From a virus (lineage: Duplodnaviria > Caudoviricetes): a DNA stretch of 64,000 nt. Position 1 is the first letter of the stretch. Each line of letters starts with the position of its first letter. Shown here piece after piece: positions 10,198 through 61,579 of this stretch. The notes below the pieces were generated by a model. The model ran no database searches. It was not told the origin of the DNA and saw nothing but the letters and a program-made list of their open reading frames with translations. The translations under genes and the position numbers were made by a program. The stretch lies in the IMG/VR virus record IMGVR_UViG_3300037067_017580, positions 1 through 64,000 of that record, one strand, 5' to 3'.

Positions 10198-11298
10198 ATG
10201 AGCACCCATATTGTTTCTATCGACAATAAAATATATAAAATTATAGAAACTGGAAAAAGAAAGGTGTGTGTTTCGGAAGATTATAATAATATCTTTGACA
10301 AAGATAGCGGGTTTTATGCTGTTTGGGGAAAAACAAAAGAAGAAGACCCCAAGTATAGTCCAATTGGGCCAGATATTCTTGATTTTGAGATTTCCAGCGG
10401 AAAATGTTCTATGTCGTGCGAATTTTGTTATAAGGGAAATTCTATTACAAAAGAACAAAAAAACACTTCTTTTGAAACATTTAAGGCTGTTTTTGATAAA
10501 ATGGGCAAGCAGTTAAACCAAATTGCGTTTGGTATTTGCGATATTGATGGTTGTCCAGATTTTTTCAAAATGATGGAATATTCCCGCGCAAACGGAGTTA
10601 TCCCAAACTATACTACTTCCGGCGTTGGTTTAACAAATGATCTTGCAAAAAGAACTTCTGAGCTTTGCGGGGCGGTTGCTGTATCTGTTTACAAAAAAAA
10701 TAAGAATATCGGTTATGACGCGATTAAAATGTTTACTAACGAAGGAATGACACAGGTAAATATTCACGCATTTACTTCAGAAGAGTCTTTTGATTTTCTT
10801 AAAGAAATAATGAATGACATGGTAAACGACAGCAGATTATCAAAAATGAATGCTATTGTTTTTCTTGGAATAAAACCAAAGGGAAGAGCAAAGGGAAGAT
10901 TTTCTCCTCTATCAATGAACAAGTTTGGAGAATTAATTGATTTTTGCTTAAAAAATAACCTTAAATTCGGTTTTGATTCATGTTCTGCTCCACGATATGA
11001 AAAATGGGTAAAAGAAAACGCTAATTTCAACAATGAAATAAAAGAAAAATATCTTTCTATGTCGATGTCTTGCGAATCATTTTTATCGTCGGCGTACATT
11101 AATTGCGAAGGATTTTCATTCCCATGTTCTTTTTGCGAAGGAGAACCGGGGTGGGAAGAAGGAGTTAATGTTTTAGATAAAAACTCATTTTTAGACGTTT
11201 GGTATGATGAAAGAATGGTAAAATGGAGAAATAATCTTTTATCATGTGAAAAAAATAATTGCAGAAAATGTATGATGTTTGAAGAAATAAATATTTAA
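10198..11298 (+). CDS. Radical SAM/SPASM-domain protein
   Basis: CSMSCEFCY (CX3CX2C); C-terminal CESF..SAYINCEG..FPCSFC..CRKC. Confidence 0.9.
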   Translation: MSTHIVSIDNKIYKIIETGKRKVCVSEDYNNIFDKDSGFYAVWGKTKEEDPKYSPIGPDILDFEISSGKCSMSCEFCYKGNSITKEQKNTSFETFKAVFDKMGKQLNQIAFGICDIDGCPDFFKMMEYSRANGVIPNYTTSGVGLTNDLAKRTSELCGAVAVSVYKKNKNIGYDAIKMFTNEGMTQVNIHAFTSEESFDFLKEIMNDMVNDSRLSKMNAIVFLGIKPKGRAKGRFSPLSMNKFGELIDFCLKNNLKFGFDSCSAPRYEKWVKENANFNNEIKEKYLSMSMSCESFLSSAYINCEGFSFPCSFCEGEPGWEEGVNVLDKNSFLDVWYDERMVKWRNNLLSCEKNNCRKCMMFEEINI

Positions 11299-11309
11299 AA
11301 GGAAAAAAC

Positions 11310-11603
11310 ATGAAATATAGGGATGGTTTCGTCAGTAATAGTTCTTCGTCAAGTTTTGTTCTAAACATTTGCGGGTTATCGTCCGAACAAAAAGACAAAA
11401 TATTTGACCATATAAATGCCGCAAAGGAGGCTGGTTGGAACACTCATGCCTCTGCATATCATTTTTGGTCACACGAAACCCTTGGGGCTGATTTTTGTAA
11501 ATTTAGTGCAAATATGGATAATTTTGACCTTATAGGATGGATAAAATATGTTATCGGGGCAGAAGAGACAGAAAAAAGAACAGGTAATTATGATGGTAAT
11601 TAG
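11310..11603 (+). CDS. GFVSNSS-motif protein 1
   Basis: N-terminus MKYRDGFVSNSSSSSFV. Confidence 0.85.
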   Translation: MKYRDGFVSNSSSSSFVLNICGLSSEQKDKIFDHINAAKEAGWNTHASAYHFWSHETLGADFCKFSANMDNFDLIGWIKYVIGAEETEKRTGNYDGN

Positions 11604-11612
11604 GAGAAAAAT

Positions 11613-11936
11613 ATGAAATTTAGAACAGGTTTTGTTAGCAATTCTTCAAGTTCAAGTTTTATTTGCGGCGAAGGAATTACTAAAGAACAAGCTATAGAGT
11701 TTATGCAAAAAATTATTTCCGCGAATGAAGAAAATGATTTTTGGGGAAAATTTTCAGAAGATGATTATTATATTATAGAACTAGACAAACACACAGCCAA
11801 AGATTTTAATGGAACATTTAAAAATTTTGTCGGAAGAGTTTTAATAATGTCAACCGATGATAATTCTATCCCTTCCGATATACATGATTTAATTGAGAGA
11901 AAACTTGGTGCAGAACGTTTTCATGGTGTTTATTAA
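11613..11936 (+). CDS. GFVSNSS-motif protein 2
   Basis: N-terminus MKFRTGFVSNSSSSSFI; AGGAG RBS. Confidence 0.85.
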   Translation: MKFRTGFVSNSSSSSFICGEGITKEQAIEFMQKIISANEENDFWGKFSEDDYYIIELDKHTAKDFNGTFKNFVGRVLIMSTDDNSIPSDIHDLIERKLGAERFHGVY

Positions 11937-11950
11937 AAAGGAGAAAATAA

Positions 11951-12331
11951 ATGAAGATTCGTAGCGGTTTTGTAAGCAACTCTTCCACAAGTTCTTTTAT
12001 TTGCGATATTTGTGGGGCAAATGGGGCCGGTTCTGACTGTGCAGGAATTGACGAATATGGGTTTTGCAAGTGTGTAAATGGCCATACAATTTGTTTAGAT
12101 CATCTATTGCCAGGATTTGAAGAATATAGAGAAAATGAAAATAATGAGTATTGTTCCTATGGCGAAGTTTCAGAACAGTTTTGCCCAATTTGTCAAATGA
12201 AAGAATTTTCTCAAAAAGAACTTATTAAATATTTTATGAAAATTAATAATAAAACACAAGATGATATCAAAAAAGATGTTTCTGGAAAATTTAACAACTA
12301 TAAAGATTTTAAATCATTTTTAAAGGACTAA
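11951..12331 (+). CDS. GFVSNSS-motif protein 3 with Cys/His Zn-binding motifs
   Basis: MKIRSGFVSNSSTSSFI; CDIC, CKCVNGH, CPIC. Confidence 0.85.
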   Translation: MKIRSGFVSNSSTSSFICDICGANGAGSDCAGIDEYGFCKCVNGHTICLDHLLPGFEEYRENENNEYCSYGEVSEQFCPICQMKEFSQKELIKYFMKINNKTQDDIKKDVSGKFNNYKDFKSFLKD

Positions 12332-12335
12332 AACT

Positions 12336-12743
12336 ATGAAAATTCGTCAAGGATTCGTTTCTAACAGTTCAACATCATCATTTATGATCTATGGTGCGTT
12401 TTTTAGATTTGATAAATTGTGTAAAAATGAAAAATTTATTAATACAATTAAAAAAATAGCAGAAAAAGACGGATACGATATTTCAGATATTGAAGAATCA
12501 GCATATAAAATTGCTGAAAATATTGGAATAGGAGATATCATCGACGAAATGCTCGGTGATTCATTCTTGCGTTGCGAAGAAGTTCCAGAAGAAAAAGATG
12601 TCTATATTGGGCAATCATGGGAAAAGATTAAAGATGACGAAACGGGAAGAGAATTTAAATTGAAAATAACAGAAGAATTGCGGGCAATTTTTGGTAAAGA
12701 TGTTATTTGCGATACCCATAAAGAAGCATTTGCTAATTATTAG
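12336..12743 (+). CDS. GFVSNSS-motif protein 4
   Basis: MKIRQGFVSNSSTSSFM. Confidence 0.85.
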   Translation: MKIRQGFVSNSSTSSFMIYGAFFRFDKLCKNEKFINTIKKIAEKDGYDISDIEESAYKIAENIGIGDIIDEMLGDSFLRCEEVPEEKDVYIGQSWEKIKDDETGREFKLKITEELRAIFGKDVICDTHKEAFANY

Positions 12744-12752
12744 GAGAAAACA

Positions 12753-13130
12753 ATGAAATATCGTTCTGGATTTGTGTCAAACTCAAGTACCTCTAGTTTC
12801 GTTATTATAGGGTACGAACTTCCCGAAGATTATAAAATTGACGAAAGAAAAATTGCTCAAATTCTTTTAGATAAAGAAGATTTTGAAATAGCAGAAGAAT
12901 ATAAAGATTATATCCATATACTAAAAGAAAGAGATTACTATCTGGGAACCTGTAGCGACGACGGAGGGAGAATGATCGGTGTTGTTGCACAAGAAAGCGA
13001 TGGCTGTGGGAACTTTGATTCTCTATGTATCTCTATAAAAAACTTAGTAGAAGAAGCAGAAAAAATTAAAAAACTTCTTGACTTGCCCGTAGAAGATGTT
13101 AAAATAATAACTGGAACAAGGATGTGCTAA
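12753..13130 (+). CDS. GFVSNSS-motif protein 5
   Basis: MKYRSGFVSNSSTSSFV; AGGAG RBS. Confidence 0.85.
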   Translation: MKYRSGFVSNSSTSSFVIIGYELPEDYKIDERKIAQILLDKEDFEIAEEYKDYIHILKERDYYLGTCSDDGGRMIGVVAQESDGCGNFDSLCISIKNLVEEAEKIKKLLDLPVEDVKIITGTRMC

Positions 13131-14229: not shown

Positions 14230-15348
14230 ATGTATATTCACCCGGCGCGGCTCTACGATTATCAAACAATTTACGATAATTTACAGCTTGAAATCGCAAA
14301 TAAAAACGTCTCTGTCTCAAAAATGGGGGATTTAGAGCTATATCACTACACAAATAAATGTACATACGACCATGCGTGGAATGTCTGGACTAAAATGGCG
14401 CGGGGCTTAATTTTAGATGTTGTAGAAAAAAGGGTTGTAGCAACTCCATTTGAGAAGTTTTTTAATTATGGAGAACTAGGGAATTTCGATTTACCGAATG
14501 AACCATTCTCAGCGTTTGAGAAACTTGATGGGTCGATGATTATATGTTTTTGGTATAAAGATCGTTGGATTTTAACCACTAAAGGTTCTTTTTATTCAGA
14601 ACAAGGTAAATGGGCAACTGAAAAATTCAAAGAATATGATGAAGAAGCCCTTGTTAAAGGGACAACATATATTTTTGAAGCCATATATAAAGCAAACCAA
14701 ATTGTTGTTTCATATAATTATGAGGGGCTGGTTATTCTTTCATGCTTTAGCGAAAATGGGACAGAAACTGGGTATAACCATCTTCCGGCGTTGTCTCATA
14801 TTATAGAATGTAAAGATGCTATTTCTTATTCTTTTAATAATATAGAAGAGATAATAAACGCCGCAAAAATCCTTGATAAAAACAACGAAGGATTTGTCGT
14901 CCGTTTTGAAAACGGTTATCGCATTAAAATAAAAGGTGAGGAATATAAGCGCATACATAAAATTGTGTCAAATATTACTCCAATAGCGATATGGGAAGCA
15001 ATGTTGGCCAAAGATAACCTATTAGAAATTCGCAAACAAATTCCAGAAGAGTTTTATAAAGATTTTGATAAAATTCGTGATTTATTGTCAGAAAAAATGC
15101 AAGATTTGTTAATGGAAATCGGAATATGGGGGCTAAAAACAAAAGATTTGTCAAATAAAGAACTTGGGCTGGACGAATCTGTGCCGAAAGACATCAAGGG
15201 ATTTATTTTCGCCGCTAGAAACAACAAAAGTATTATTACTGATAAAAAACAAAGAGAATCATTTTTTCGCAAATTTAGACCAGATGGGAATATTCTAGAA
15301 GGTTATTCCGCAAGTACACATCTTTTAGGGTTGAAGGATGAAATATGA
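14230..15348 (+). CDS. T4 Rnl1-type RNA ligase
   Basis: ARGLILD, PFEKFFN, motif I FEKLDGS, TKGSF, IFEAI, EGFVV, IKIKGEEY. Confidence 0.88.
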   Translation: MYIHPARLYDYQTIYDNLQLEIANKNVSVSKMGDLELYHYTNKCTYDHAWNVWTKMARGLILDVVEKRVVATPFEKFFNYGELGNFDLPNEPFSAFEKLDGSMIICFWYKDRWILTTKGSFYSEQGKWATEKFKEYDEEALVKGTTYIFEAIYKANQIVVSYNYEGLVILSCFSENGTETGYNHLPALSHIIECKDAISYSFNNIEEIINAAKILDKNNEGFVVRFENGYRIKIKGEEYKRIHKIVSNITPIAIWEAMLAKDNLLEIRKQIPEEFYKDFDKIRDLLSEKMQDLLMEIGIWGLKTKDLSNKELGLDESVPKDIKGFIFAARNNKSIITDKKQRESFFRKFRPDGNILEGYSASTHLLGLKDEI

Positions 15349-16319
15349 AGCTTGAAAACATTGGATTTTATACACTATCAGACGACAGGGCGAATTCTTC
15401 CTCAATCTTTTCGCCCTTGCAAAGATGCGAACTAATCTTGGGCGGCAGATGTAATTTTAAATGTCCCTATTGCCGTGGGCTTAGACCTGACTTTTCTAAA
15501 GATATGACAGAAGAAGAGGCTCTTTCTGTCCTTGAAATATGGTGTCAAAATAGACTAAAAAATGTACGGTTTTCTGGTGGCGAGCCAACCATCTACAAAT
15601 ATTTAGGTAATCTAGTTTCGTTTTGTAAAGGAAATCAAGTAGAAAGAATCGCAATTTCAACCAATGGAAGCGCAGATATCTCGTTATATGAAGATTTATT
15701 TAACAGAGGGGTAAACGACTTTTCTATCTCTTTAGATTCTGGCTGTTGCTCTATTGGCGATAAAATGGCCGGAGGGGTTAGTGGGGCTTGGGAAAGAGTA
15801 ATTGAAACAATTAAATATCTTAGCAAAAGAACATATGTTACAGTGGGCATGGTTTTTACAGAAGAAAATATCAACCAGTGTTTGGAGTATGTTTTATTCG
15901 CTGATTCTCTTGGTGTTTCTGATATTAGAGTAATTCCTTCTGCTCAGTACAATAAAGCTCTTTCTATTTTAACCAAACTGCCAGAAGAAATTTTAAACAA
16001 GCATAAAATTCTAAAATATAGAATTAACAACATAAACAGCGGAAAACACGTTAGAGGGTTACAAAAGAACGACTGTAATCGGTGTTGGCTTGGCCTTGAC
16101 GATATGGTTTGTGTCGGAGGATATCATTTTCCGTGCATTATTCACATGAGGGAAGGCGGCGATCCTATTGGGAAAATTGGTCAAGATATTAGAACACAGA
16201 GAGAAAGCTGGGTTAAGAACCATAATTGTCAAACTGATCCAATTTGTATTAAAAACTGTTTAGATGTTTGCCGGGATTATAATAATAAATATGAAGAATT
16301 ACACGATAAAACATCTTGA
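15345..16319 (+). CDS. Radical SAM protein with Cys-rich C-terminal (twitch/SPASM-like) domain
   Basis: CNFKCPYC, SGGEPT, STNG, SISLD; ATGA-coupled to the ligase. Confidence 0.88.
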   Translation: MKLENIGFYTLSDDRANSSSIFSPLQRCELILGGRCNFKCPYCRGLRPDFSKDMTEEEALSVLEIWCQNRLKNVRFSGGEPTIYKYLGNLVSFCKGNQVERIAISTNGSADISLYEDLFNRGVNDFSISLDSGCCSIGDKMAGGVSGAWERVIETIKYLSKRTYVTVGMVFTEENINQCLEYVLFADSLGVSDIRVIPSAQYNKALSILTKLPEEILNKHKILKYRINNINSGKHVRGLQKNDCNRCWLGLDDMVCVGGYHFPCIIHMREGGDPIGKIGQDIRTQRESWVKNHNCQTDPICIKNCLDVCRDYNNKYEELHDKTS

Positions 16320-33309: not shown

Positions 33310-34578
33310 CTAAGAAGATAGTTTGTCGGCTAAATCAATCAATATGTCTCGAAAATAATTAAATATTTCAAAATTAACTCCATTTTTGTCACATCCCCAC
33401 GAAAATGGAGAACATGAAAAATAAAATCCACCATCATTGATTAAATTTGTAGTTGGTAAATTAAACTCTGTTTTGCAATATTTCTTAAAAAATGGCTGTT
33501 TTGTTATATTACCCGAAATAATTGGCCTAGTTTGTATCCCTTTTTCTTCTAATTCTTTTACTGTTTCGTTTTTAACTCTTTCGCTTTTACAAACAATAGG
33601 AAAACAAAACGCAGAAATATCTAATTTTCTATTAATATATTGTTCATAAAATTTAGGATATATAAATTCGGTAAAGCGATATGGAATACTTTGGCTCATA
33701 AACTCATAAAAAACACCATTTCTATCGCTAATTGTCTCGTCTATTATTTTAAGTTGTTCCTGACACAAAAATGCCGTAATCTCTGTTGGGCGAAGGTTAA
33801 ATCCGATATCGAAGAAAGTAAAATCTGTTTCATCTGGATCTATTTTAGCACAAGAACATAATTTGTCAAGTGTTTTTTTATCTAAATCACGCCCCCAGCC
33901 ATTAGAACGGACAATTTTTAACATATCATAGAGCTTTTTATCACCGGTCAGAACCGCCCCGCCCTCAATTGTGCTCATTTGGTGAGAAACATAAAAAGAA
34001 AGTGTACCTGCCAATCCAAAAGTACCTAAATATTTGTTATTATATTTCGCGCCAAGGCTTTCACAGTTATCTTCTAGCAAAATAATATCATTTTCAGAAC
34101 AAAACTTGGCTATTTGTTCGATATCGTTACACACACCAAGCGCATTTGTAATAAAAAGAACCTTGAATCCATATTTATTATAAGCGGCTCTTATGGCACC
34201 AACCCCTATATTAAAACTAAACGGCTCACAATCAATCGCAATAGGGTTCAAATCCATTTGGATAATAGGAGATACATTGGTAGACCAAGTTAGAGAAGAA
34301 AAGCCTACGTTGTCACCAGATTTGATTTTTCCAAGGTTTTTTAACGCCTGTAAGAGCGCAAAATTGGCTGAACCACCACTATTGAACAAAACAGCATGTT
34401 TTGAACCAAACTTTTTAGACAAAGCCGCCTCGCATTTTATACATTCTCCGTTCATGCTTAGACGGTCTGTATTTTTAATAAATTCAGCAAGTTTTTCACG
34501 TAAATCAACTTTGCTTTCAAATGTATCATAGACAAGAGGTATCTTATATTTATTTGACATTTTTATTTTTTTTACCAT
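33310..34578 (-). CDS. colD: PLP-dependent DegT-family enzyme, ColD-like GDP-4-keto-6-deoxymannose 3-dehydratase
   Basis: NSGGSAN, LTWST, EDNCESLGA, SFYVSHQMSTIEGG (His at the usual PLP Lys position), GFNLRP. Confidence 0.75.
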   Translation of the reverse strand: MVKKIKMSNKYKIPLVYDTFESKVDLREKLAEFIKNTDRLSMNGECIKCEAALSKKFGSKHAVLFNSGGSANFALLQALKNLGKIKSGDNVGFSSLTWSTNVSPIIQMDLNPIAIDCEPFSFNIGVGAIRAAYNKYGFKVLFITNALGVCNDIEQIAKFCSENDIILLEDNCESLGAKYNNKYLGTFGLAGTLSFYVSHQMSTIEGGAVLTGDKKLYDMLKIVRSNGWGRDLDKKTLDKLCSCAKIDPDETDFTFFDIGFNLRPTEITAFLCQEQLKIIDETISDRNGVFYEFMSQSIPYRFTEFIYPKFYEQYINRKLDISAFCFPIVCKSERVKNETVKELEEKGIQTRPIISGNITKQPFFKKYCKTEFNLPTTNLINDGGFYFSCSPFSWGCDKNGVNFEIFNYFRDILIDLADKLSS

Positions 34579-34585
34579 ATTTGGT

Positions 34586-35557
34586 TTATTTATTTTTCAT
34601 GCTAACAATAATTTTTTGCAGTGCTTCATCAAGTGAAGTTTCTGGATGATATCCTATTGTGTTTAATAGTCGCGAAACATCTGGATATCTTCTTTCAATG
34701 TCTTTAAAGTTCTCTCCATATGCTTCTTTATAGCCCTTGTAAACGATAGAAGAAGAGCTATTTGTTAAAAGCTTTATTTTTTTAGCCAAGTCGTTTATAG
34801 ATATTTCATTGGTAGATCCAATATTAAAAACTTGTCCATGCGCCTTATTAGAACATGCAAGAAGATATAGGCTATTTGCGACATCTTTGACATATGTAAA
34901 GCAGCGTTTTTGTTCTCCTGTCCCAAAAACAGTAATAGGCTCTCCAGCCAAAGCTTGTTTAATAAGAGTTGGAACAACCATTCCGTATGATCCTGCTTGA
35001 CGCTCTCCAATAGTATTAAATAACCGCACAATCGTTACTGGCAATTTCTTTTCATAAAAATAGGCTAATCCATGAAATTCGTCAAGTAGTTTACTAGCAG
35101 AATAACACCAGCGGCGATAACTAGTGGGGCCAATCATACATATATCGTCTTCTGAAAAAACCAAATTAGGATTCGCTCCATATACTTCGCTGGAAGACGC
35201 AATAATAACTCTTGCTTTGTTTTTCAATGCCGACCGTAAAATGTTCCTAGTCGCTTCGTGATTAACTTCAATGGTATTAATAGGTTCATCCATCACCTTT
35301 TTAACTCCAACGAGGGCGGCAAGATGATAAATTACTTGAATATTTTCTGCTAATTTTTCTACTAAACTATAATCAGTAGCGTCACCCTCTATGAGAGTAA
35401 ATTTGTTGTTAGAAACAAGATGAGAAACATTGTCTCGTTTTCCAGTGGAAAAATTATCTAATGCCGTAACAGAACAATTATTATTAAGAAGCAATTCACA
35501 CAGATGACTACCAATAAATCCAGCACCACCAGTAACTAGAACATTAGTTTTTGCCAT
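34586..35557 (-). CDS. NAD-dependent nucleotide-sugar epimerase/decarboxylase (UXS/ArnA-like SDR)
   Basis: VTGGAGFIG, ASSSEVYG, RWCYSASK, RLFNTIG. Confidence 0.88.
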   Translation of the reverse strand: MAKTNVLVTGGAGFIGSHLCELLLNNNCSVTALDNFSTGKRDNVSHLVSNNKFTLIEGDATDYSLVEKLAENIQVIYHLAALVGVKKVMDEPINTIEVNHEATRNILRSALKNKARVIIASSSEVYGANPNLVFSEDDICMIGPTSYRRWCYSASKLLDEFHGLAYFYEKKLPVTIVRLFNTIGERQAGSYGMVVPTLIKQALAGEPITVFGTGEQKRCFTYVKDVANSLYLLACSNKAHGQVFNIGSTNEISINDLAKKIKLLTNSSSSIVYKGYKEAYGENFKDIERRYPDVSRLLNTIGYHPETSLDEALQKIIVSMKNK

Positions 35558-45926: not shown

Positions 45927-46325
45927 TCAACATTTTTCAAAAATTTTTGCTACTTCTTCTATTTTTGTTGTGGGAGCGAGAGTTATAACCTCTTGAAAAC
46001 TATCCCTATTCGGTTCTATTGTATCAACGATAAGAATTTTTTTATGGGCTAACCCTTCTCTGGCGGCATCACAAGAAGAAGAGCAAGAAGAAAAAGAAAC
46101 CGCTACAGCATTTCTATTTTTCATAGCTGTAGAAATAGAACAATTAACAAACATCGTTCTAAAAATATCACAAATTGGTTCGTCGCAGGCAATAACAACT
46201 GGATTTTTAAGTATTTTTATCAATTCATAGAGCCAAGTTGACCGCTGTGCTTTGTCTTTTTTAAAATTATCAATATAAAAAATTAGTGTTTTATATTGGT
46301 TTTCTGGTATTTTTTCTATACTCAT
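45927..46325 (-). CDS. Hypothetical protein
   Basis: ATGA-type overlap with gmd. Confidence 0.65.
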   Translation of the reverse strand: MSIEKIPENQYKTLIFYIDNFKKDKAQRSTWLYELIKILKNPVVIACDEPICDIFRTMFVNCSISTAMKNRNAVAVSFSSCSSSCDAAREGLAHKKILIVDTIEPNRDSFQEVITLAPTTKIEEVAKIFEKC

Positions 46326-47311
46326 TTATTTTCCAAATCATAATTTACCATTGTTCTTGCCAACTTTTCAACATCAAAAAAGCTTGTCCAGCCTAACTTA
46401 GTCCTAATTTTAGAAGAATCTCCACAAAGATACGTTAAATCATTTGGCCGCATAAACGTTTCCGTATTATGACGAATATGCCTATTAAAACAAAAATAAT
46501 TTTGTCTAAGTTTTTCATTTCCATATTTAAAACAAAGATCTATAAATTCTTTTCCGGTTGTAGATTTTTCTGTTGAAACAACATAATCTTCAAGAATATC
46601 TGATTCTCCAACTAAAATTAAAGCGTTTGCATAATCTCCAGCATAGCCCCAGTCTCTTACAAAATTAAGATTTCCAAGCTCTATAAACTCTTTATTACCT
46701 TGAATGATATCCCTCATTCCAAGAGTAATTTTACGAGTAAAAAAGTTTTCTCCACGCTTTTCCGATTCATAATTAAACATAATAACAGAAGCCGCATTCA
46801 TTCCATAGGAATCTCTATATACACGAACAGCATTATGCCCAACGGTTTTTGCTAACCCATATGGACTACGAGGAAGAAGTTGGGAATTCTCATTGATTTT
46901 GCCACCATCAATATATCCAAACATCTCCGAACTAGAACATTGAACAAATTTACAGTCTTTTTTGTGCTTTCTTATTGCTTCAAGACAGTTTACTACTCCA
47001 ACTCCAGTGACGTTAATTGTCGAAACAGGAGTGACCCATGATTCTTGAACATATGACATAGCTGCACAATTAAAAAACACATCTGGGCTATATTTTTTTA
47101 CAACTTCTTCAATAGATGTTACGTCGCAAAGATCAAATGTCTCAAAAATAAAATTCTTATTCTCAAAAAAATGTTTTCTATCTTTAAGTTTTTCACTAAT
47201 ATTTGTGGTGTGACGGCACAGACCAATAACTTTATAATCTTTATCAAGAAGTTTATTTACCAAAAAGTATGCCATTTGTCCAGTAAGACCAGTAACTATC
47301 GCTGTTTTCAA
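46322..47311 (-). CDS. gmd: GDP-mannose 4,6-dehydratase
   Basis: TGLTGQ, AAMSYV..SW, SSSEMFG, PRSPYGLAK, FNYES..RGE.F.TRKI, LGNL...RDWGYAGDY. Confidence 0.92.
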   Translation of the reverse strand: MKTAIVTGLTGQMAYFLVNKLLDKDYKVIGLCRHTTNISEKLKDRKHFFENKNFIFETFDLCDVTSIEEVVKKYSPDVFFNCAAMSYVQESWVTPVSTINVTGVGVVNCLEAIRKHKKDCKFVQCSSSEMFGYIDGGKINENSQLLPRSPYGLAKTVGHNAVRVYRDSYGMNAASVIMFNYESEKRGENFFTRKITLGMRDIIQGNKEFIELGNLNFVRDWGYAGDYANALILVGESDILEDYVVSTEKSTTGKEFIDLCFKYGNEKLRQNYFCFNRHIRHNTETFMRPNDLTYLCGDSSKIRTKLGWTSFFDVEKLARTMVNYDLENK

Positions 47312-50738: not shown

Positions 50739-51755
50739 TCAGAATATTCTTTTCTCATGCTTAATCAAAACCTTGTTAAACAACTCGTTCCATGCGGCAT
50801 TAGACTTCTCTATATTATACTGATTTATGATGGTTTGTCTAGCATTTTCTGATATTTTTTTATAATTTTCTTCATCGCTGTGTAAAATATTTAAAATTTC
50901 TTCAGCTTCTTCAGCCGTGCTAAACAAATAGCCGTTTTCTCCATGTTTTATAAGTTTTTCCAATGTAGGATTAGAGGTAGATAACACAGGAACGCCGCAA
51001 GACATAGCTTCTAAAACCGTTGTTGGGATAACAGACCTATGACAAGTATTAATAAAAACTTTACTTTTTGTATAGGAATCTACTAGTTCATTAACATCTT
51101 TTGCTGGTTTATATTCACCATTTGAAGAACTTCCCAAGTGCAAATATGAATATTGAGGACACTTTTGTTTTATTTCTTCATAAAGAGTGTAATTTAATTC
51201 AGAATTTCTTTCTTTATAAAAATTAGCAACAGTTAAAATATGTGTTTTAACACCATTATCTTCTCTTGGTTTAAAAAACTCATTATCAATAGCATGATTT
51301 ATAACAAAACAATTGTCTCTACCTTCGCATCTCCACTCTTTTCTTTGGTCTTCAGTAAGAAAAACCATATAATCGCTTTTTTCATATACTTTTATATTTT
51401 CCATTGTATAATTAGACCAATTTTCAGGATGATAACAATATAAAAATGTAATATGCGGCAAATTAAAAGCTTTTGCAAGTTGTCCCATAAATTGCTGTTG
51501 TGATATCGTATTAGATATAAGAATATCGACACCAGAAGAACTTTTAAACTGGTCGAATGATATTTCTATAATATTCCGTGGCCGCTTTCTGTATTCATCA
51601 TTCCATTGTTTATTTTCAGGAGACTCTTTAATATGAATAAACTGGTGTCCGGTTTTAGCAATCTCTGCTTGAATAGCTTCGTGAGTAGAAAAAGAACCAA
51701 TTCTTAACTTATCTTTGCGATTTATTGCCCGAAATAATGAAGTAAAATTATGCAT
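50739..51755 (-). CDS. GT4-like glycosyltransferase
   Basis: VINHAID...F.P; K...Y; PTTVLEAMSCGVPV; HGENGY. Confidence 0.88.
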   Translation of the reverse strand: MHNFTSLFRAINRKDKLRIGSFSTHEAIQAEIAKTGHQFIHIKESPENKQWNDEYRKRPRNIIEISFDQFKSSSGVDILISNTISQQQFMGQLAKAFNLPHITFLYCYHPENWSNYTMENIKVYEKSDYMVFLTEDQRKEWRCEGRDNCFVINHAIDNEFFKPREDNGVKTHILTVANFYKERNSELNYTLYEEIKQKCPQYSYLHLGSSSNGEYKPAKDVNELVDSYTKSKVFINTCHRSVIPTTVLEAMSCGVPVLSTSNPTLEKLIKHGENGYLFSTAEEAEEILNILHSDEENYKKISENARQTIINQYNIEKSNAAWNELFNKVLIKHEKRIF

Positions 51756-51960
51756 TAACTTCCCCTTTTATTTTAAAATAATCTTCTGCATATTGATAAA
51801 TTTCTGCTCCATATATTAAAACATAAAAAGCATTTTTTATTCTTTTTTTAATCTCAAAAAAACCACCATATGAAACTGGTTTAGCAACAAACCACGTATG
51901 GTTAATCAGTGTTTTTGTATCAATTAAGTTTTTGTCTTTTAATAATGTATCTATTAACAT
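51748..51960 (-). CDS. Hypothetical phage protein (WFVAKP..RIKNA..VL)
   Basis: Packed between the GT4 genes. Confidence 0.65.
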   Translation of the reverse strand: MLIDTLLKDKNLIDTKTLINHTWFVAKPVSYGGFFEIKKRIKNAFYVLIYGAEIYQYAEDYFKIKGEVNA

Positions 51961-52865
51961 TTTATTGCTTCTCCTATTACACTTTGCCAATTTTGAACAA
52001 ATTTTTCTATATTAAACATCTTTTTAATAGTTTCTTTGCCATTTTGACCAATTTCTTTAGCTTTCTTTGGATTACTTAACAAAAAATCAATCATTGAAAT
52101 TATTTCTAATACATCATTACTTTTAAAACCATTTTTTCCATTGTCTATAAAAAATGTTGCCACACTATCTATAGAAACCGTGGGAATTCCAACCGCCATA
52201 GCTTCTAATAACGAGGTAGGAAGAGTAGACCACTTAGCGGTATTCAAAAAAATAGCACATTCAGAATATAGCTCTAATAGTTCCTTCTGGCTTGCAATTA
52301 TTTTGTCTCCAATATGTAAACAATCAAAGCAATTGGCAATGGATTTCCATTCGTTATAGCCAAGAATATCATCTCTATCTTTAAAATTATAGGCCACAGA
52401 TAATACTTTATCATTTTTTCTTTCCCATTCTTTATTTAAGAAATCATTCTGTGGTGCGTGTCCGACAATTCTATAATTATCGCCGTCTCCATATTTCCAT
52501 ATTTTTGCTTGTTCGATTGTGGTAAACACTTTTATTTTTGCCTTACACATTCTTTTTATTTCTATAAGATATGGCAAATGGTGTTCTAACGGGAGACAAT
52601 GTTCTGTTTCTATTATTGGAATTTTATTATCAGGAAAATTATTGATCAGTTCTCTTTGCTCAAAGGCAGAATTAGAGATTATAACATCTATTTTAGACAA
52701 ATCAACATCTTTTATGTCAGAAGGAATAAAATTATCTGGAAGAGGACACTCCTCTATCTTCCACCCTTTCGGTCTTTCTGGACAATTAAGCAGATAAAAG
52801 GTGTGTCCTGTTCTGGCTAAATTGGACTGATACCCTTCATGGGTGGCAAATGTCAAAATATTCAA
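51954..52865 (-). CDS. GT4-like glycosyltransferase (paralog of 50739..51755)
   Basis: Both begin with a THE motif; PTSLLEAMAVGIP; NGKNGF. Confidence 0.88.
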   Translation of the reverse strand: MNILTFATHEGYQSNLARTGHTFYLLNCPERPKGWKIEECPLPDNFIPSDIKDVDLSKIDVIISNSAFEQRELINNFPDNKIPIIETEHCLPLEHHLPYLIEIKRMCKAKIKVFTTIEQAKIWKYGDGDNYRIVGHAPQNDFLNKEWERKNDKVLSVAYNFKDRDDILGYNEWKSIANCFDCLHIGDKIIASQKELLELYSECAIFLNTAKWSTLPTSLLEAMAVGIPTVSIDSVATFFIDNGKNGFKSNDVLEIISMIDFLLSNPKKAKEIGQNGKETIKKMFNIEKFVQNWQSVIGEAIKC

Positions 52866-53953
52866 AGAATTTCGCCAAATAATTTAGAGAACTCTTTACT
52901 GATGGTTGCCAATGAATATTCTTCCAATAAAATATTATTAATCTTAACAGGACTTTTTGTTAAATACACTCTTCTCATTGCTTCGACTGCCTCTAAAATA
53001 TTAGGATTTTGCCAAACCTGTGAAGAATTATATAAGTATGGGCGGGGAGAATCTGCCAAGCAAGGAGCAAAGTTTTCTTTCAAAACATTATATTTTTTAG
53101 GCCAATTACATGCAAAATACAAATAATCATTTCCATAACAATTAGAAGTAATAATATCTTTGCCCATCACAGCAGCATCAAACATTGGCAAATTCCATGA
53201 CTCACCGTGGCTTAGAGAAACATAAGTATCACATGTTTTAATAACATTTTCTACATGTTCTTCTGATAATTCTCCATGTGTGAACAGAACCTTAGGATAA
53301 TTTTTAAGCTTCATTTTAGTTTTTAGCGTTTTTACTTTTTCAGCAAACTCATTCGCCCCAGCACTATCAGTTGCCAAGTGTAAAGACAAAATAACATTTT
53401 CATTATCCTGAAATGCAATAAAATATGCCATTACAATAGAAAATATGTTTTTTCTCTCATTTAGCGTGGAAACGCTTGCAAAAACGTGTGTATCTTTATC
53501 GGTAAGTTGCGACTTAAAATCGTACTGTTTTTCTTCTATCTCTTGAGAAAATCCACAAAAAGGAATAGGAATTTTATAAGATTTTGTTATTTCAGACAAT
53601 CTTTCATGCTCAAACTTATTTGCAACTATTCCAAAATCATAATAACTTTTTATATTATTAACCCAAGGCTCTGGCAGTGGATCCGCTTCCCAATAAAACA
53701 AGCATCCAGTTTTGGAATTAATTTTAGCATCGCAATAATCTGGAAGAGTATTTACAATTGTTAAATCTACATTTTGTACATCTTTTTTCTCTTCTTCTAA
53801 AAAATCAATACAGCCATTGTCACCGCCAAAAGAAACATTTCTAACAACTAAATCAATATCTGCACAAGTTTTAATGGCTTTAATGTATCTACGAGATGCT
53901 GTTCCATATCCGGTATTTTCTTTATAGTTTGAAATAAATAATACTTTTTTCAT
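52862..53953 (-). CDS. GT4-like glycosyltransferase
   Basis: GYGTASR, WEAD, RKN, SHGESWNLPMFDAAVMG. Confidence 0.85.
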   Translation of the reverse strand: MKKVLFISNYKENTGYGTASRRYIKAIKTCADIDLVVRNVSFGGDNGCIDFLEEEKKDVQNVDLTIVNTLPDYCDAKINSKTGCLFYWEADPLPEPWVNNIKSYYDFGIVANKFEHERLSEITKSYKIPIPFCGFSQEIEEKQYDFKSQLTDKDTHVFASVSTLNERKNIFSIVMAYFIAFQDNENVILSLHLATDSAGANEFAEKVKTLKTKMKLKNYPKVLFTHGELSEEHVENVIKTCDTYVSLSHGESWNLPMFDAAVMGKDIITSNCYGNDYLYFACNWPKKYNVLKENFAPCLADSPRPYLYNSSQVWQNPNILEAVEAMRRVYLTKSPVKINNILLEEYSLATISKEFSKLFGEIL

Positions 53954-55617
53954 CAGATTACCCCAAAAGTGTCATTTTTGACAGATTTTACATATCCTAC
54001 TCGTTTTTTCTCAAAGAAATTATATTTTTCAATAAAAGATTTAAATAACGCAGTTAAATGATTTGGCCCAAAAGCTGATCTACTATATCCGTCTATTAAA
54101 CAAACTCCAGAATTTATTGATTCTATTATTTCTCTAGTCTTGAATTCTGTAAAATATGGATGTTTTGTTATATTATTTATAATCCATTCAGCCGCCTCGG
54201 CATAATTATTTCCAATTTCTGCTGGAACCTTAATATCTTCCTTCATAAAACATGGAGAATCATTCCATCCAGGCAAACCAGAAATATCTATTTCGTCAAA
54301 AGCCCTTTCCCATATTTTAGCAGTATTTTCCCAAGTGAAAACTTCATCTGCACACTTTTTTGCCTCATCGCATTTTGATTGATACATCCCTGTTGGCATT
54401 GTAAGAACTTCATAAATCTTTTTAGCAAGACCGGAACGACTAAAATAGGCCCTCTTTTGCATCGTGTCGGCTTCTGTTGCCATTCTTTCTATCGGAACAA
54501 TAAATCCTCCCCTATGTCTACCGTCTGGCGCTATTTCTTCACCTTGCTCTTGTGTAGCCGAATATGGAACCGCAATAACCGGGACGCCAACCTTTTTAAA
54601 TTCAGAAAGCGGCATTCCCCATCCCTCTCCAATGCTCATAAGAACGCCAAGATCGGCAAGTTTCATTATTGCGCCAAGTTCTTTTCGTTTGATCCCATTA
54701 TTAACACTGGTCATTGTCATAGATTTGTTTTTACACTTGCTACATTCGCATACTATCTTGTTTAAACGGCTAATAGCAACCGATTTACACTTATTACAAA
54801 CATAGGTCGTTAAAATTCTATCAGCATAACCAGAATTTAAAATAGCCTGTGGCAAATCCCACCCGCGATCAGGATTTGAGGTATGAACATAAAAATAAAC
54901 GTTATCGGCAAGCTTTTTGTTCTTTTCTTTGTATTTATTGATAAAAACTGATAAAGTTTCAAGAAAATCAGGGAACAATTTACGCATCTGATTACGAGCG
55001 ACCATCATAACAATTTTCATATCTTGCGGAATGCCAAACATTTTACGAAGCTCTTCTTTAGACTCTGTTGGGCAAAACTCATCTTCAACGCCCGGAGACG
55101 CAACTAAAACATTGTTAATTTTGCCGTTAGACTCTTTTTCTAATGTTTCTTTACCAAAATAACTATATGCGAGAACCTTGTCGCAAGAAGAATATGTATC
55201 AATCCAATTTGGCCGCTGTGGACAACTATCTACGGTTGGCATCCAAATAAATTTAAAAAATCTACGATAAGGGCTTTTAGAAATATATGAGCTATACCAG
55301 TGGTCGAAAATACTCATAACAATATTTGGTTTAAAGTCTAGGCAAGCATCTTCAAACTTAAATGTTCCAAACTGAGCTTCTCCATTTTTAGAATAGAGAT
55401 CTTGATATTGTTTATCTTCTCGACTTGGCATTACCGGATAAACTTTCCAATCTTTCTCATAAATTCTTGGGTCATCCGGACTTGCATAGTTAGCAAATTC
55501 AGATATTTCATATTTACCAGTCTTGTTTAATCTTTCTAATACATTCTTATAATAAATAGCGAATCCAGAACTTAAAGAAGTAAATTCACTATGAACTAAT
55601 ATTCGTTTTTTTGCCAA
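53953..55617 (-). CDS. Large GT4-like glycosyltransferase with inserted CxxC...CxxC
   Basis: SGFA, VARNQMRK, CNKC..CSKC, SIGEGWGMPLSE...GVPVI. Confidence 0.88.
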   Translation of the reverse strand: MAKKRILVHSEFTSLSSGFAIYYKNVLERLNKTGKYEISEFANYASPDDPRIYEKDWKVYPVMPSREDKQYQDLYSKNGEAQFGTFKFEDACLDFKPNIVMSIFDHWYSSYISKSPYRRFFKFIWMPTVDSCPQRPNWIDTYSSCDKVLAYSYFGKETLEKESNGKINNVLVASPGVEDEFCPTESKEELRKMFGIPQDMKIVMMVARNQMRKLFPDFLETLSVFINKYKEKNKKLADNVYFYVHTSNPDRGWDLPQAILNSGYADRILTTYVCNKCKSVAISRLNKIVCECSKCKNKSMTMTSVNNGIKRKELGAIMKLADLGVLMSIGEGWGMPLSEFKKVGVPVIAVPYSATQEQGEEIAPDGRHRGGFIVPIERMATEADTMQKRAYFSRSGLAKKIYEVLTMPTGMYQSKCDEAKKCADEVFTWENTAKIWERAFDEIDISGLPGWNDSPCFMKEDIKVPAEIGNNYAEAAEWIINNITKHPYFTEFKTREIIESINSGVCLIDGYSRSAFGPNHLTALFKSFIEKYNFFEKKRVGYVKSVKNDTFGVI

Positions 55618-55660
55618 AATTTATTCCTTTTATTGATATATTATTTATATATTTTGCTTA

Positions 55661-56365
55661 TTAATCTTCAATGGTTTTTTGTATATCAATACCAAAACTA
55701 TATTTAAATTTATTATAGAAATTAATTCTTATAATATCATTTTTATTACTCTTTTTAAGTTCTTCTAAATATTTATAAAAATAATTTTTTAATACTTCAA
55801 AAATCTTCAAAGGATTTAAACAAAGATTAGGGCAATCTGAATTATCGTGTGAATATTTAACATATCCTAGATTTTCTTCCATAATAAATTCACTCCCCGG
55901 ATTAATTGACCCATAAAGAGGAATATTTGCCTGATATAAACCTTCGCAACATAATATATTATAAAGAATCGCTGCACTATTTGTTAAATTATCTTCAATA
56001 ATATCAATCAGTAAATTTATTTTATCACTATTTTCATCTTTTAAATATTTTCTAATAAAATCTATAGAAGTATTTTTATCAAGAAACAATTTTCCTTCTC
56101 TATACTGACTAAAGGTATTAATCAATAATCCATCTAATGCTAAAATAACAAAAGAAAAATGTCCATTTTTGGCAAGAACCTCGGTAGGTTCAATATACCA
56201 TTTTTCTATTCTTTCTTTAAATGCATCTAAAATACAATTAAAAGACTTCCAATTAATATCACTATAAAGCTTGTCTTTAGTAAAATGTCTTTTTTCTTTT
56301 ACTGGAGTATAAGGCATTTCATTTGTTAATACACTATAAAAAACTCTATCATTTGCCATAAACAT
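55661..56365 (-). CDS. Hypothetical protein (bacterial-like, possibly HEPN-related)
   Basis: 234 aa ORF after a short intergenic gap; FSFVILAL.GLLI.TF.Q and C.GLYQA. Confidence 0.65.
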   Translation of the reverse strand: MFMANDRVFYSVLTNEMPYTPVKEKRHFTKDKLYSDINWKSFNCILDAFKERIEKWYIEPTEVLAKNGHFSFVILALDGLLINTFSQYREGKLFLDKNTSIDFIRKYLKDENSDKINLLIDIIEDNLTNSAAILYNILCCEGLYQANIPLYGSINPGSEFIMEENLGYVKYSHDNSDCPNLCLNPLKIFEVLKNYFYKYLEELKKSNKNDIIRINFYNKFKYSFGIDIQKTIED

Positions 56366-56557
56366 ATCCTTTCCTATAAATTAAACAATTCATCCTTTTT
56401 TATTTCGTTTAAAAGATTTTCTAAATAATCTTCAAGTTCTCGCCCAGTAAATCCAAATTCTCGTGGCTCAAATTCAACTACATCATAGTAAAAATAACTA
56501 TTATTTAATATCTTTTGGACAACAGTAATAAGTTCTTTTGCGTTTTTAGACAACGTT

Positions 56558-56929
56558 TTAGCAAAACCCTTCCCACCCAAACCAAGTATCTTTACAGCTA
56601 AAATGCATTCCGTATCCACTTCGAGTTGTTGTTAGTGTTTTACCTACTTCTCCAATAATGGTCACGTCTTTTGCATCTTGTAAAAACGGTTCTTCGTTTG
56701 TTATATTACTATTTATACCAATAGATGGCTTAATTATAGCATAATATTTTTTTTCAAATTGTATTAGCCCATAGTACACACAAGGGCCTTTTGTTCCATT
56801 TATATAACAAATTTTTGGAATTTTTACCATACTGCAATGTATATTTTCTTGTTTTTTGTAGCCATCTTTTTCTTGTCTTAAATATAGTTCTTTTACTAAT
56901 TCATCAGAAGATGCTTCTAAAATATCCAT
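56558..56929 (-). CDS. Hypothetical protein
   Basis: GGAG RBS. Confidence 0.65.
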   Translation of the reverse strand: MDILEASSDELVKELYLRQEKDGYKKQENIHCSMVKIPKICYINGTKGPCVYYGLIQFEKKYYAIIKPSIGINSNITNEEPFLQDAKDVTIIGEVGKTLTTTRSGYGMHFSCKDTWFGWEGFC

Positions 56930-56932
56930 TAT

Positions 56933-57181
56933 TTATCTCCACTTTTCCCATTCAAGTTTATCGTTGGATATTAGATTAAGAGTAGGAATAACAACAGGAA
57001 CGATTTCTCTTCCCTTCTTACCATTTTCGTTTAATTTAAATGGTTTCGTATAAACAAAATAACAATCATCTATACAGGCGGAAATGGCAGAGTCAAAATC
57101 TGAATAGATAGAGTTTATTCCATAGCTTTCATATTTTCCATCTTCGTCGTAAAAATATTCCCCAACAACATAAATATCCAT
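56933..57181 (-). CDS. Hypothetical protein
   Basis: GGAG RBS. Confidence 0.65.
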   Translation of the reverse strand: MDIYVVGEYFYDEDGKYESYGINSIYSDFDSAISACIDDCYFVYTKPFKLNENGKKGREIVPVVIPTLNLISNDKLEWEKWR

Positions 57182-57182
57182 T

Positions 57183-57719
57183 TCACACTCCCTTAATTTT
57201 TATATTAAATATGTTTTCTTCTTTCTTCTCTTCTGCAACTGGAATTTCAATAGTAAAAATACCATCCTTGGAAGAAATTTCTGCCAAATTAACATTCAGT
57301 TTATTCTCATTACCAACACCAAACTTTTGTACAAAGTTTCCATCTTTAAAACCAATAGAAATATCATAATTATAACAATTTAAAGCTTTTGCATAAAAAA
57401 TTGTATCTTGAAGATATTTATTTGTTAGTTCATTTATATTGGCATATTTAATATCAGAAACGCTGTATCCGGGAATTTTAATGGTAATAATACACTTATT
57501 ATCCTTTTTTTCTACATTAAACCCATAAGAGTTTTCGTTTCTGCCAAAAATAGAATTAAAAAGATCTTGAAATTCTTTATTGCTTCTTTCCATATTCTCT
57601 CCTTTATCAATTTTCTTATCGACTAACTTATTATAACCACCATATAAAGTGTTATAAAAATCGTTTATCTCGTCCATCAAAAGCTTTTCGTCAATTAGCT
57701 TACATTTTGTTTCCATCAA
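57183..57719 (-). CDS. Hsp20/alpha-crystallin-like small heat-shock protein
   Basis: VEKKD..IITIKIPG..DI; SSKDGIFTIEIP..EE..I.IK. Confidence 0.65.
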   Translation of the reverse strand: MMETKCKLIDEKLLMDEINDFYNTLYGGYNKLVDKKIDKGENMERSNKEFQDLFNSIFGRNENSYGFNVEKKDNKCIITIKIPGYSVSDIKYANINELTNKYLQDTIFYAKALNCYNYDISIGFKDGNFVQKFGVGNENKLNVNLAEISSKDGIFTIEIPVAEEKKEENIFNIKIKGV

Positions 57720-58192
57720 AATGGTACCTCTGAATCAGAAAATTCTTGTCCTTCGTCACGCTGTTGCTCTTGCTGACCTTGTGGCTCTTGTTGTTCGTCT
57801 CTGTTTGTTTGTGGTTTCTGATATGACGGTTTGTTATATGGCTTCTTTTGATATCCACCACCATTTCCACCCTTGTTATCTCCGTCCGAATTTCCCCAAA
57901 CTATGTTTGTTTTTAATACAGTAAACGAAACTCCATGAATTTTAACACTATCTTTATTGAGATAAGTGTTGTCTCGAAGAAAACCAACAACATCTACCTG
58001 TTTCCCCTTTTTAAGATATTGCGAAATGCTTGCTGGCTCACTTGAAGTACAATTAAAAAATAAAGACTTTTCTTTGTCTCCAAGAACATCATTAGTTGCT
58101 ACTGTGAAAACAAGATAATCTCTACCGTCTTTTGTTTTCTTAACTTCTGCGTCCTTAACTAATCTGCCACCACTAATTGTAAATGTGTTCAT
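57716..58192 (-). CDS. ssb: Single-stranded DNA-binding protein
   Basis: GRLVKDAE, YLKKGKQV.V.G.L, G/Q-rich linker, acidic SEVPF tail. Confidence 0.92.
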   Translation of the reverse strand: MNTFTISGGRLVKDAEVKKTKDGRDYLVFTVATNDVLGDKEKSLFFNCTSSEPASISQYLKKGKQVDVVGFLRDNTYLNKDSVKIHGVSFTVLKTNIVWGNSDGDNKGGNGGGYQKKPYNKPSYQKPQTNRDEQQEPQGQQEQQRDEGQEFSDSEVPF

Positions 58193-58216
58193 TCATTTCT
58201 CCTTATTTTAAAAAAA

Positions 58217-58405
58217 TTAACTAACCTTAACAATTTTTGCAATAATTTGATCTTCTGGAACCAACTCTTTTTTAGCAATTCTTGCGTCTTTTCTTGACAC
58301 AAAAACATTATACATTGATAATTCTTTTTTGCCATATAAAACATTTGACGTTGTAGGATTTCCTTTTTCGTCAACAATCGCCCAAAGATAATCTTTTACT
58401 TGCAT
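58217..58405 (-). CDS. Small hypothetical protein, WA...F.SRKDAR family
   Basis: GGAG RBS; motif shared with three other ORFs. Confidence 0.72.
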   Translation of the reverse strand: MQVKDYLWAIVDEKGNPTTSNVLYGKKELSMYNVFVSRKDARIAKKELVPEDQIIAKIVKVS

Positions 58406-58418
58406 TTTCTTTTCTCCA

Positions 58419-58634
58419 TTAATTTAAAACCTTAAAATCTTCTTCTAACATCGTCTCCAACCAATTATCAGCACACAAACGTTTAAAAAAATGTTTCTCG
58501 TCATCAAAATAAAACGTTTCTCTTAGTTGCCCATGAGTTAAACTAATTTTATTATCTGATACAACCAGAGAAAATTTCCTAGATCTTAATGCTTTCCCTT
58601 TTCTGGCCTCTATACATGCTTCTAAAAATTTCAT
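58419..58634 (-). CDS. Hypothetical protein
   Basis: ATGA overlap. Confidence 0.6.
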   Translation of the reverse strand: MKFLEACIEARKGKALRSRKFSLVVSDNKISLTHGQLRETFYFDDEKHFFKRLCADNWLETMLEEDFKVLN

Positions 58635-58981
58635 ACAATTTGATACTCGCAAACTAAATCAAAATTTTGTATTTGATAGGCAGCACCCATTGTCGTTGCA
58701 AAAATAGCCTTTTCTCTAAAATCGAGATAAACATATTCGTCTCCAAATTTAAGTTTTTTACCACTTAAAAGTAAAGATATCGCTTCTACTCCTGAAACTG
58801 TTCTTGGCCCATCTAATTCTTCCCATTTTGCATCTAGGTTTGAAGGAGTCGGTGTTACATAGATAGAAGTTCCTTCAAATTCAAAATTGCCAAGAGAAGA
58901 AACTATGGCAATTTCACTAGTTCCAGTCTTTTTTACTCTTTTCCCGCCTTTTGCGGATAAATATGCTTCATAATAATTCAT
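58631..58981 (-). CDS. Hypothetical protein with a duplicated module
   Basis: EAY...GGKRV and EAI...SGKKL halves. Confidence 0.65.
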   Translation of the reverse strand: MNYYEAYLSAKGGKRVKKTGTSEIAIVSSLGNFEFEGTSIYVTPTPSNLDAKWEELDGPRTVSGVEAISLLLSGKKLKFGDEYVYLDFREKAIFATTMGAAYQIQNFDLVCEYQIV

Positions 58982-61578: not shown

Positions 61579-61579
61579 A

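Follow-up and report, generated by a model that had tools for sequence, protein, structure and literature searches.

In ribosomally synthesized and post-translationally modified peptide (RiPP) systems one maturase can serve many precursors with a conserved leader, as with the prochlorosins and ProcM, or the Nif11/NHLP-leader families and their radical S-adenosylmethionine (radical-SAM) maturases. The locus described here is of comparable layout. It lies within a stretch of 64,000 nt (hereafter the window), positions 1 to 64,000 of the IMG/VR virus record IMGVR_UViG_3300037067_017580 (Duplodnaviria; Caudoviricetes), in which the gene for a radical-SAM enzyme is directly followed by five small genes whose products all start with MKxRxGFVSNSS[ST]SSF. 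The pairing of this N-terminal motif, termed the tag below, with one family of such enzymes in hundreds of phages points to an undescribed protein-tagging or protein-modification system. As in RiPP systems, the enzyme gene stands beside a gene array, the products combine a conserved N-terminal piece with a hypervariable remainder, and up to a dozen putative substrates are found per enzyme. Unlike the short cores of RiPP precursors, the remainders (bodies) are folded proteins of 90–200 residues. Further differences are that the conserved piece comprises 16 residues from Met1 and is nearly invariant across enzymes that are 27–50 % identical, that no PqqD-like domain, protease or exporter accompanies it, and that its carriers are mainly large phages of virulent type.

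Three other described systems share individual features with this locus. The anaerobic sulfatase-maturating enzymes (anSME/AtsB) are radical-SAM/SPASM proteins that act on a short motif, C/S-x-P/A-x-R, within whole proteins, can oxidise serine, and contain two fully Cys-ligated auxiliary clusters. Both systems pair a radical-SAM enzyme with a short motif carried by complete proteins, but anSMEs act on one substrate family as against hundreds of unrelated bodies here, the sulfatase motif is not present in the tag, the enzyme family differs, and only four auxiliary Cys are invariant. In FxsA/FxsB, FXSXX-COOH peptides are paired with a radical-SAM/SPASM enzyme and undergo three-residue cyclophane (‘triceptide’) chemistry. 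The F-V-S-N-S of the tag is a literal F-x-S-x-x, its partner is likewise a radical-SAM protein with a C-terminal cluster domain, and the cellular form of the pair lies beside a STAND NTPase; however, the motif is here at the protein N-terminus and not at the peptide C-terminus, and there is no metallopeptidase partner. The internal proteins of phage T4 are small and polymorphic, with a common short N-terminal capsid-targeting peptide that carries a protease site. Tagged proteins are also small polymorphic proteins of T4-like phages whose common feature is a short N-terminal peptide, but T4 has no radical-SAM partner, the peptide sequence differs, and the tag also occurs in non-phage cassettes.

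The nearest published idea is that of Kaur et al. 2020 (PMC7159879), who predicted, next to STAND/vWA systems, radical-SAM enzymes acting on peptide effectors, among them C-terminal peptides of the FxSxx type; it concerns, however, other enzyme families and C-terminal motifs. Exact motif strings and keywords retrieved no description of the tag in the papers searched.

The tagged gene array and its enzyme

The radical-SAM gene and the five tagged open reading frames (ORF1 to ORF5, numbered as tagged proteins 1 to 5; 97–135 aa) form an operon on the plus strand, with the following features.

10198–11298, plus strand: radical-SAM enzyme, 366 aa, matching phrog_7293
10405–10428, plus strand: codons of the CX3CX2C cluster motif (C70, C74, C77)
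10981–11271, plus strand: span of the predicted auxiliary-cluster Cys (C262, 10981–10983; C292, 11071–11073; C310, 11125–11127; C358, 11269–11271)
11310–11603, plus strand: tagged protein 1, 97 aa, pI 5.1; tag codons 11310–11357; body in a 59-member cluster
11613–11936, plus strand: tagged protein 2, 107 aa, pI 4.7; tag codons 11613–11660; body in a small cluster (7 members)
11951–12331, plus strand: tagged protein 3, 126 aa; tag codons 11951–11998, followed at once by a Cys-rich zinc-ribbon and a helical tail
12336–12743, plus strand: tagged protein 4, 135 aa, pI 4.6; tag codons 12336–12383; body in the largest cluster
12753–13130, plus strand: tagged protein 5, 125 aa; tag codons 12753–12800; small alpha/beta body with a conserved GTRxC at its end

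Intergenic gaps are 11, 9, 14, 4 and 9 nt, the first being that between the enzyme stop and tagged gene 1, and an AGGAG-like ribosome-binding site precedes each gene. An earlier reading of the window from its letters alone (the original prediction) had given 12 nt for the first gap; the five N-termini it quoted are exact. In an alignment of the five proteins, 13 of the first 16 columns are invariant and no column beyond them is conserved. A hidden Markov model of the motif, run on approximately 5,400 ORFs, separates true tags (E < 3e-4) from all other ORFs (E > 0.7), and the whole 76.9-kb virus contig holds these five copies and no more.

The 48-nt stretches coding for the tag have 26–34 bases in common between copies (54–71 % identical). 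Additionally, among 222 tagged genes from other phages, serine codons of both the AGY and the TCN family occur at each Ser position. The mixture of codon families and the low DNA identity together indicate selection on the peptide and not on the DNA, as had been proposed from the five copies.

The bodies had been described as unrelated. This holds as far as conserved columns past the tag are concerned, but ORF4 and ORF5 fall into one BLAST single-linkage cluster via intermediates, their own pairwise alignment being limited to the tag. The Zn-binding Cys noted in one of the proteins are those of ORF3, whose family alignment has conserved Cys at positions 18, 41, 78 and 81 (zinc-ribbon). ORF5 has 22 full-length homologues at 32–40 % identity. 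Pfam, NCBIfam and PADLOC gave no match to any of the five proteins, PHROGs gave phrog_7397 alone (matching positions 1–20), and no function is assigned to the tag in Pfam, NCBIfam or PHROGs. With the ORF5 body (residues 18–125) as query, tag-less relatives were not found by a word-based search, which is weak here, and an Atlas search returned unnamed viral clusters alone. The region has no blastn match among phage records, and no RNA holders are listed for it.

AlphaFold2 models, built with family alignments, place the tag outside the folded part of ORF5 and ORF3. ORF5 (predicted local distance difference test score, pLDDT, 82) is a small alpha/beta domain with residues 1–14 in coil, of which residues 1–3 and 8–10 have pLDDT < 50; ORF3 (pLDDT 83) is a zinc-ribbon followed by helices, with residues 1–12 in coil. 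The two models are of different folds, the tag is a low-confidence N-terminal tail in both, and only its last two to four residues start the first strand. A coil tail on two different folds is not a strand of one shared fold, which disposes of an objection raised with the original prediction. Fold searches with the ORF5 model gave no match (Foldseek against the PDB, best E 0.067; VIA-wide, best Z 4.3), and those with the ORF3 model gave weak zinc-finger rows and no informative match.

The enzyme matches phrog_7293, a PHROG of unknown function, with E 2e-71. Its Pfam matches are below cut-off (Radical_SAM PF04055, E 0.0016; SPASM, E 0.011 and 16.4 bits against a cut-off of 21.5); a cellular homologue matches PF04055 above cut-off (E 1.7e-13). 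The window copy was aligned with 23 viral homologues (24 sequences, 36–50 % identity), and by its CX3CX2C motif (C70/C74/C77), invariant in all 24, the enzyme is a radical-SAM protein as judged from sequence. Likewise, C262, C292, C310 and C358 are invariant in 24/24, which suggests that at least one auxiliary cluster is conserved. The window enzyme also has C303, C313, C350 and C355, making eight C-terminal Cys in total; these additional columns are Cys in 3–13 of the 24 homologues, and a second auxiliary cluster in the window enzyme, beyond the one conserved family-wide, is possible. SPASM domains have 7–8 Cys ligating two auxiliary clusters, and twitch domains 3–4 Cys ligating one. Of the ‘CX3CX2C plus SPASM’ description given originally, the first part thus stands, but a two-cluster SPASM domain is not established for the family.

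At the N-terminus, about 60 residues are conserved and peculiar to the family; the C-terminal part is an auxiliary-cluster (twitch/SPASM-like) domain. The nearest solved chains by profile are the twitch-domain enzymes SkfB (E 1.2e-4) and BtrN (E 4e-4), which likewise join a radical-SAM core to a C-terminal region with a single conserved auxiliary cluster; the similarity, however, is marginal and confined to the core, and the substrates are unrelated. The first 50 or so profile positions match nothing solved. The nearest NCBIfam families are the peptide maturases MftC (mycofactocin), WgkB, PqqE and PapB, all far below cut-off. No anSME model is found among the NCBIfam matches of the window enzyme or among those shown for the cellular enzyme, and FxsB, XyeB and GrrM models are likewise absent from the ten matches of the window enzyme and the 25 of 39 shown for the cellular enzyme, all of which are far below cut-off; the lack of an FxsB match is a further difference from FxsA/FxsB. 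Neighbours of the enzyme in the ESM Atlas are almost all viral, and it is present in 173 cultured-phage records, mostly of T4-like phages of Klebsiella, Enterobacter, Cronobacter, Citrobacter and E. coli. Enzyme homologues are interrupted in several phages, either by one in-frame TAA or TAG or as two pieces around a homing-endonuclease gene (G002:C1:33936–35150, G004:C1:64484–65689 and Cronobacter phage leB), and a published note describes the enzyme gene as split in Klebsiella phage Kpn35c1.

Linkage and distribution of the tag and the enzyme

Co-occurrence of the motif with this radical-SAM family had been set as a test beforehand, and it is found in both directions. In 46 IMG/VR loci fetched with the tag pattern, an enzyme homologue lies within 10 kb in 29, and the enzyme is the only neighbour family present in more than six. 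Conversely, of 80 loci fetched with enzyme patterns only, 76 contain 1–11 tagged genes, most of which follow the enzyme gene directly; with one exception, they share its strand. Taking all 126 viral loci together, the enzyme is found in 108 and the next commonest family in 13; no other conserved partner gene, glycosyltransferase, protease, transporter or third component is apparent across them. Ten tag-only viral contigs without the enzyme within 10 kb were searched whole. The enzyme is located elsewhere on the contig in two, and seven are estimated by CheckV to be 5–55 % complete, so that its absence from these means little. Direct functional coupling of tag and enzyme appears very likely from this pattern.

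Both components are present in cultured T4-like phages. Klebsiella phage Miro encodes two tagged proteins besides the enzyme, and RB43, RB16 and Lw1 are further cultured carriers. A Miro tagged protein occurs in 175 phage records and the enzyme in 173, in almost the same host genera; this co-distribution agrees with linkage, yet only a few lineages stand behind the counts. The Miro tagged genes, Miro114 and Miro119 (KT001919.1, 67179–71549), bracket a gene for a 738-aa vWA-domain protein, a context not seen in the other loci.

A second radical-SAM gene of the window, 15345–16319 (plus strand), had been included in the original prediction as a further candidate for co-expression with the tagged proteins. 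It is near a tag in none of the 46 other loci, and a link to the tag is not supported. The best NCBIfam match of this gene is MoaA (sub-threshold), its Pfam Radical_SAM match has E 3e-20, and it is located downstream of a metallophosphoesterase and a T4 Rnl1-like RNA ligase.

The tag is widespread. A 32-position profile made from 148 tagged N-termini was scored against all 1.84 billion representative proteins, and with a cut-off of E 0.001 it matched 25,497 protein clusters; among the best 150 of these, almost every match begins at residue 1. A few database proteins have two tags, the second beginning with Met-Lys right after a complete first body, and are either real fusions or products of stop-codon read-through. 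Near-invariant positions of the tag are M1, K2, R4, G6, F7, V8, S9, N10, S11, S12, S15 and F16. In a set of 222 tags, F occupies position 7 in 217 (Y in 3, W in 1) and S occupies position 9 in 219, with V or I between them at position 8. The tag contains no Glu. Positions 3 and 5 are more alike within than between genomes, even where the bodies are unrelated (0 of 200 permutations reach the observed value). This likeness fits co-adaptation to the partner encoded in the same genome, and is compatible with modification or docking alike.

The collected loci contain 466 distinct tagged proteins from 121 genomes, with a median length of 130 residues. Their bodies are acidic (median pI 4.6; 88 % below 5.5) and, taken from residue 21 onward, form 114 BLAST clusters, 83 of them singletons. 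Genomes rich in tags hold mostly different bodies; 14 genes in one genome, for example, fall into 11 clusters. In 98 diverse members the mean identity is 8 % and no column outside the tag is conserved, and a defined target site can therefore hardly lie elsewhere. A Pfam scan of the same 98 proteins found nothing recurrent and essentially no match, so that there is no indication for the earlier suggestion that the bodies are small enzymes. All named tagged proteins are annotated as ‘hypothetical protein’.

When prokaryotes were scanned with one genome per species, 32 loci of metagenome-assembled genomes (MAGs) proved to contain tags, many again beside the enzyme. Acidobacteriota and Verrucomicrobiota MAGs share a conserved four-gene cassette on contigs of 174 kb to 1.47 Mb (locus L175, 3165–9502; also L170, L172, L173, L159 and L174). 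Its order is a 950-aa STAND NTPase (SMEK_N and NACHT, Avs2-like), a 128-aa ORF, a 137-aa tagged protein and the enzyme. Compared with the Acidobacteriota copy L175, the sole reference, identities are 30–40 % for the STAND NTPase, 33–58 % for the 128-aa ORF, 46–75 % for the tagged protein and 58–71 % for the enzyme. In L175, the flanks of the cassette hold integrase genes and an ArdC-like gene, and capsid genes were not noticed at the cassette loci, where no scan aimed at them was made. This arrangement places the pair in a conflict-system setting and counts against a purely virion-related role of the tag. In a Promethearchaeota MAG (L171, 8001–9464, on a 793-kb contig), the gene for a 158-aa tagged protein neighbours one for a phage-like enzyme homologue (44 % identity), which is encoded on the opposite strand; this Asgard archaeal pair may belong to a provirus.

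Contigs near-identical to the window occur in groundwater and landfill metagenomes from three studies; those that cover the region are identical to it or else too fragmentary for variation analysis. Summed depth in the landfill and groundwater contigs has spikes over or beside tag-coding stretches (window positions 11570–11667, 11864–12059 and 12354–12549). Many other contigs align at the tag-coding stretches alone, which suggests that the same communities hold many other tagged genes. Short joints at these stretches, with sides of 22–34 nt, probably derive from other tagged genes in the sample.

Possible roles of the tag

The arrangement suggests a two-part system, in which a dedicated radical-SAM enzyme with one conserved auxiliary Fe-S cluster is paired with small, acidic, unrelated proteins that display an exposed 16-residue tag. 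Binding of the tag by the enzyme is most likely, and its basic, alternating first half (MKxRxGFV) could serve as the handle for recognition. A 5′-deoxyadenosyl radical would then abstract a hydrogen atom from the serine-rich half (SNSS[ST]SSF), or from a residue immediately adjoining it, and leave a covalent change on every tagged protein. In order of preference, the candidate products are a Phe-x-Ser C–C (cyclophane) crosslink at F7-V8-S9, oxidation of Ser to an aldehyde, and epimerization. The variable bodies are probably host-takeover or counter-defence effectors that may need the mark for activity, stability or targeting.

That the enzyme probably modifies the tag is argued from the partner side: the tag is the only conserved feature of the partners, is exposed and serine-rich, and contains an aromatic-x-Ser triplet (F7-V8-S9) of the aromatic-x-x type that is the substrate of cyclophane-forming enzymes. 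For the specific claim that the enzyme covalently modifies residues in or next to the tag, we consider the case evenly balanced. Several points weigh against it. Where maturases are known to depend on a leader, the conserved N-terminal piece usually serves as the handle and is not itself the modified site. A PqqD-like RiPP recognition element was not found in the enzyme with Pfam at E up to 1. The 250-kb viral contig G003, estimated to be 88 % complete, has three intact tags and no detectable enzyme and may be a true exception, and in Miro some 20 kb separate the tagged genes from that of the enzyme. Additionally, the sharing of one enzyme by many partners could by itself freeze the tag.

The last of these considerations leads to the foremost alternative, in which the tag is a docking handle only. 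It would bind the enzyme, for example by strand addition to the N-terminal domain, and the bodies would be interchangeable adaptors or regulators that steer the enzyme towards other targets, such as host proteins, nucleic acids or metabolites, or would themselves be modified at non-conserved sites. Docking accounts for the two-way linkage equally well, it fits the extreme conservation of a tag common to many partners of one enzyme as well as the family-specific, conserved N-terminal domain of that enzyme, and conserved leaders are handles as a general rule. The within-genome likeness of the variable tag positions would also suit an interface. A serine run with an invariant Asn would, however, be an odd binding strand, the 126 viral loci have no conserved third component or substrate gene beside the pair, and the bodies offer no conserved residue as a common site. 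To our knowledge, up to 14 different adaptors per enzyme would be without precedent among radical-SAM enzymes. On this balance, a tag used for docking and nothing else is rather unlikely, although it is the alternative to be taken most seriously.

A trafficking or packaging signal comparable to the capsid-targeting sequence of the T4 internal proteins, with the radical-SAM gene linked only indirectly, is improbable. An invariant N-terminal peptide on hypervariable small proteins, arrayed in large T4-like phages, is what such a signal would resemble, and the acidity of the bodies would be in keeping with it. This role nevertheless leaves unexplained why the sole conserved neighbour is a radical-SAM enzyme, the pair also occurs in the integrase-flanked STAND cassette on long bacterial contigs, and the tag, being free of Glu, has no Glu-type (hydrophobic-x-Glu) prohead-protease site. 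The literature searched yielded no virion proteome mentioning tagged proteins.

Least probable by a small step is an autonomous element on proteins that are simply paralogues, whether a self-cleaving Ser-Ser pyruvoyl site (the alternative offered in the original prediction), a serine loop with a catalytic or phosphate-binding role, a sequon (N-x-S) for glycosylation or a glycyl-radical site: a serine-rich loop right before the first beta strand, the invariant N10-S11-S12 and an R-x-G-F with a faint resemblance to the glycyl-radical fingerprint speak for it, but none of these options, pyruvoyl cleavage included, explains the enzyme linkage, a tag on at least two folds and 114 body clusters cannot belong to one active site, the 126 viral loci have neither a glycosyltransferase nor any further enzyme conserved close by, and glycyl-radical motifs are C-terminal, have R-V-x-G spacing and are served by activases without a C-terminal cluster domain. 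A glycyl-radical protein was also considered as a candidate in its own right and rejected; the R-x-G-F of the tag is one residue shorter than R-V-x-G-[FWY] and is N-terminal, and the enzyme has a C-terminal cluster domain.

Modification of the tag by its linked enzyme is the reading we favour, and the interpretation of the locus as a modification system in the original prediction is partly supported. In its full extent the proposal is more tentative. It would comprise an undescribed post-translational modification system of viruses and mobile elements, in which the enzyme marks a universal 16-residue tag and thereby activates or protects a fast-evolving effector arsenal of more than 25,000 clusters, with the pair serving also as the output module of STAND NTPases in bacteria. 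We hold this to be plausible, somewhat short of an even prospect.

Genomic surroundings and implications

Elsewhere, the phage genome carries a split family-B DNA polymerase, two RNA ligases and many glycosyltransferases. The polymerase (phrog_405) is encoded on the minus strand as two adjacent ORFs within 60073–63928 of the window, of which 61580–63928 corresponds to profile positions 41–630 and 60073–61578 to positions 623–1049. At least four phrog_2170 glycosyltransferase genes are located at 50739–60063 (minus strand). An aminotransferase (33310–34578) and two nucleotide-sugar epimerases (34586–35557 and 46322–47311) are also present.

If the tag is modified, the system would constitute a new radical-SAM protein modification. 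Its natural substrates would be very numerous, cultured phages of E. coli and Klebsiella contain it, and it would be easy to test. It might also give a short, genetically encodable tag with a dedicated modifying enzyme. For tens of thousands of ‘hypothetical’ phage proteins, modification would be the first shared property, and the arrays in phages together with the STAND NTPase neighbours in bacteria suggest a role in phage–host conflict.

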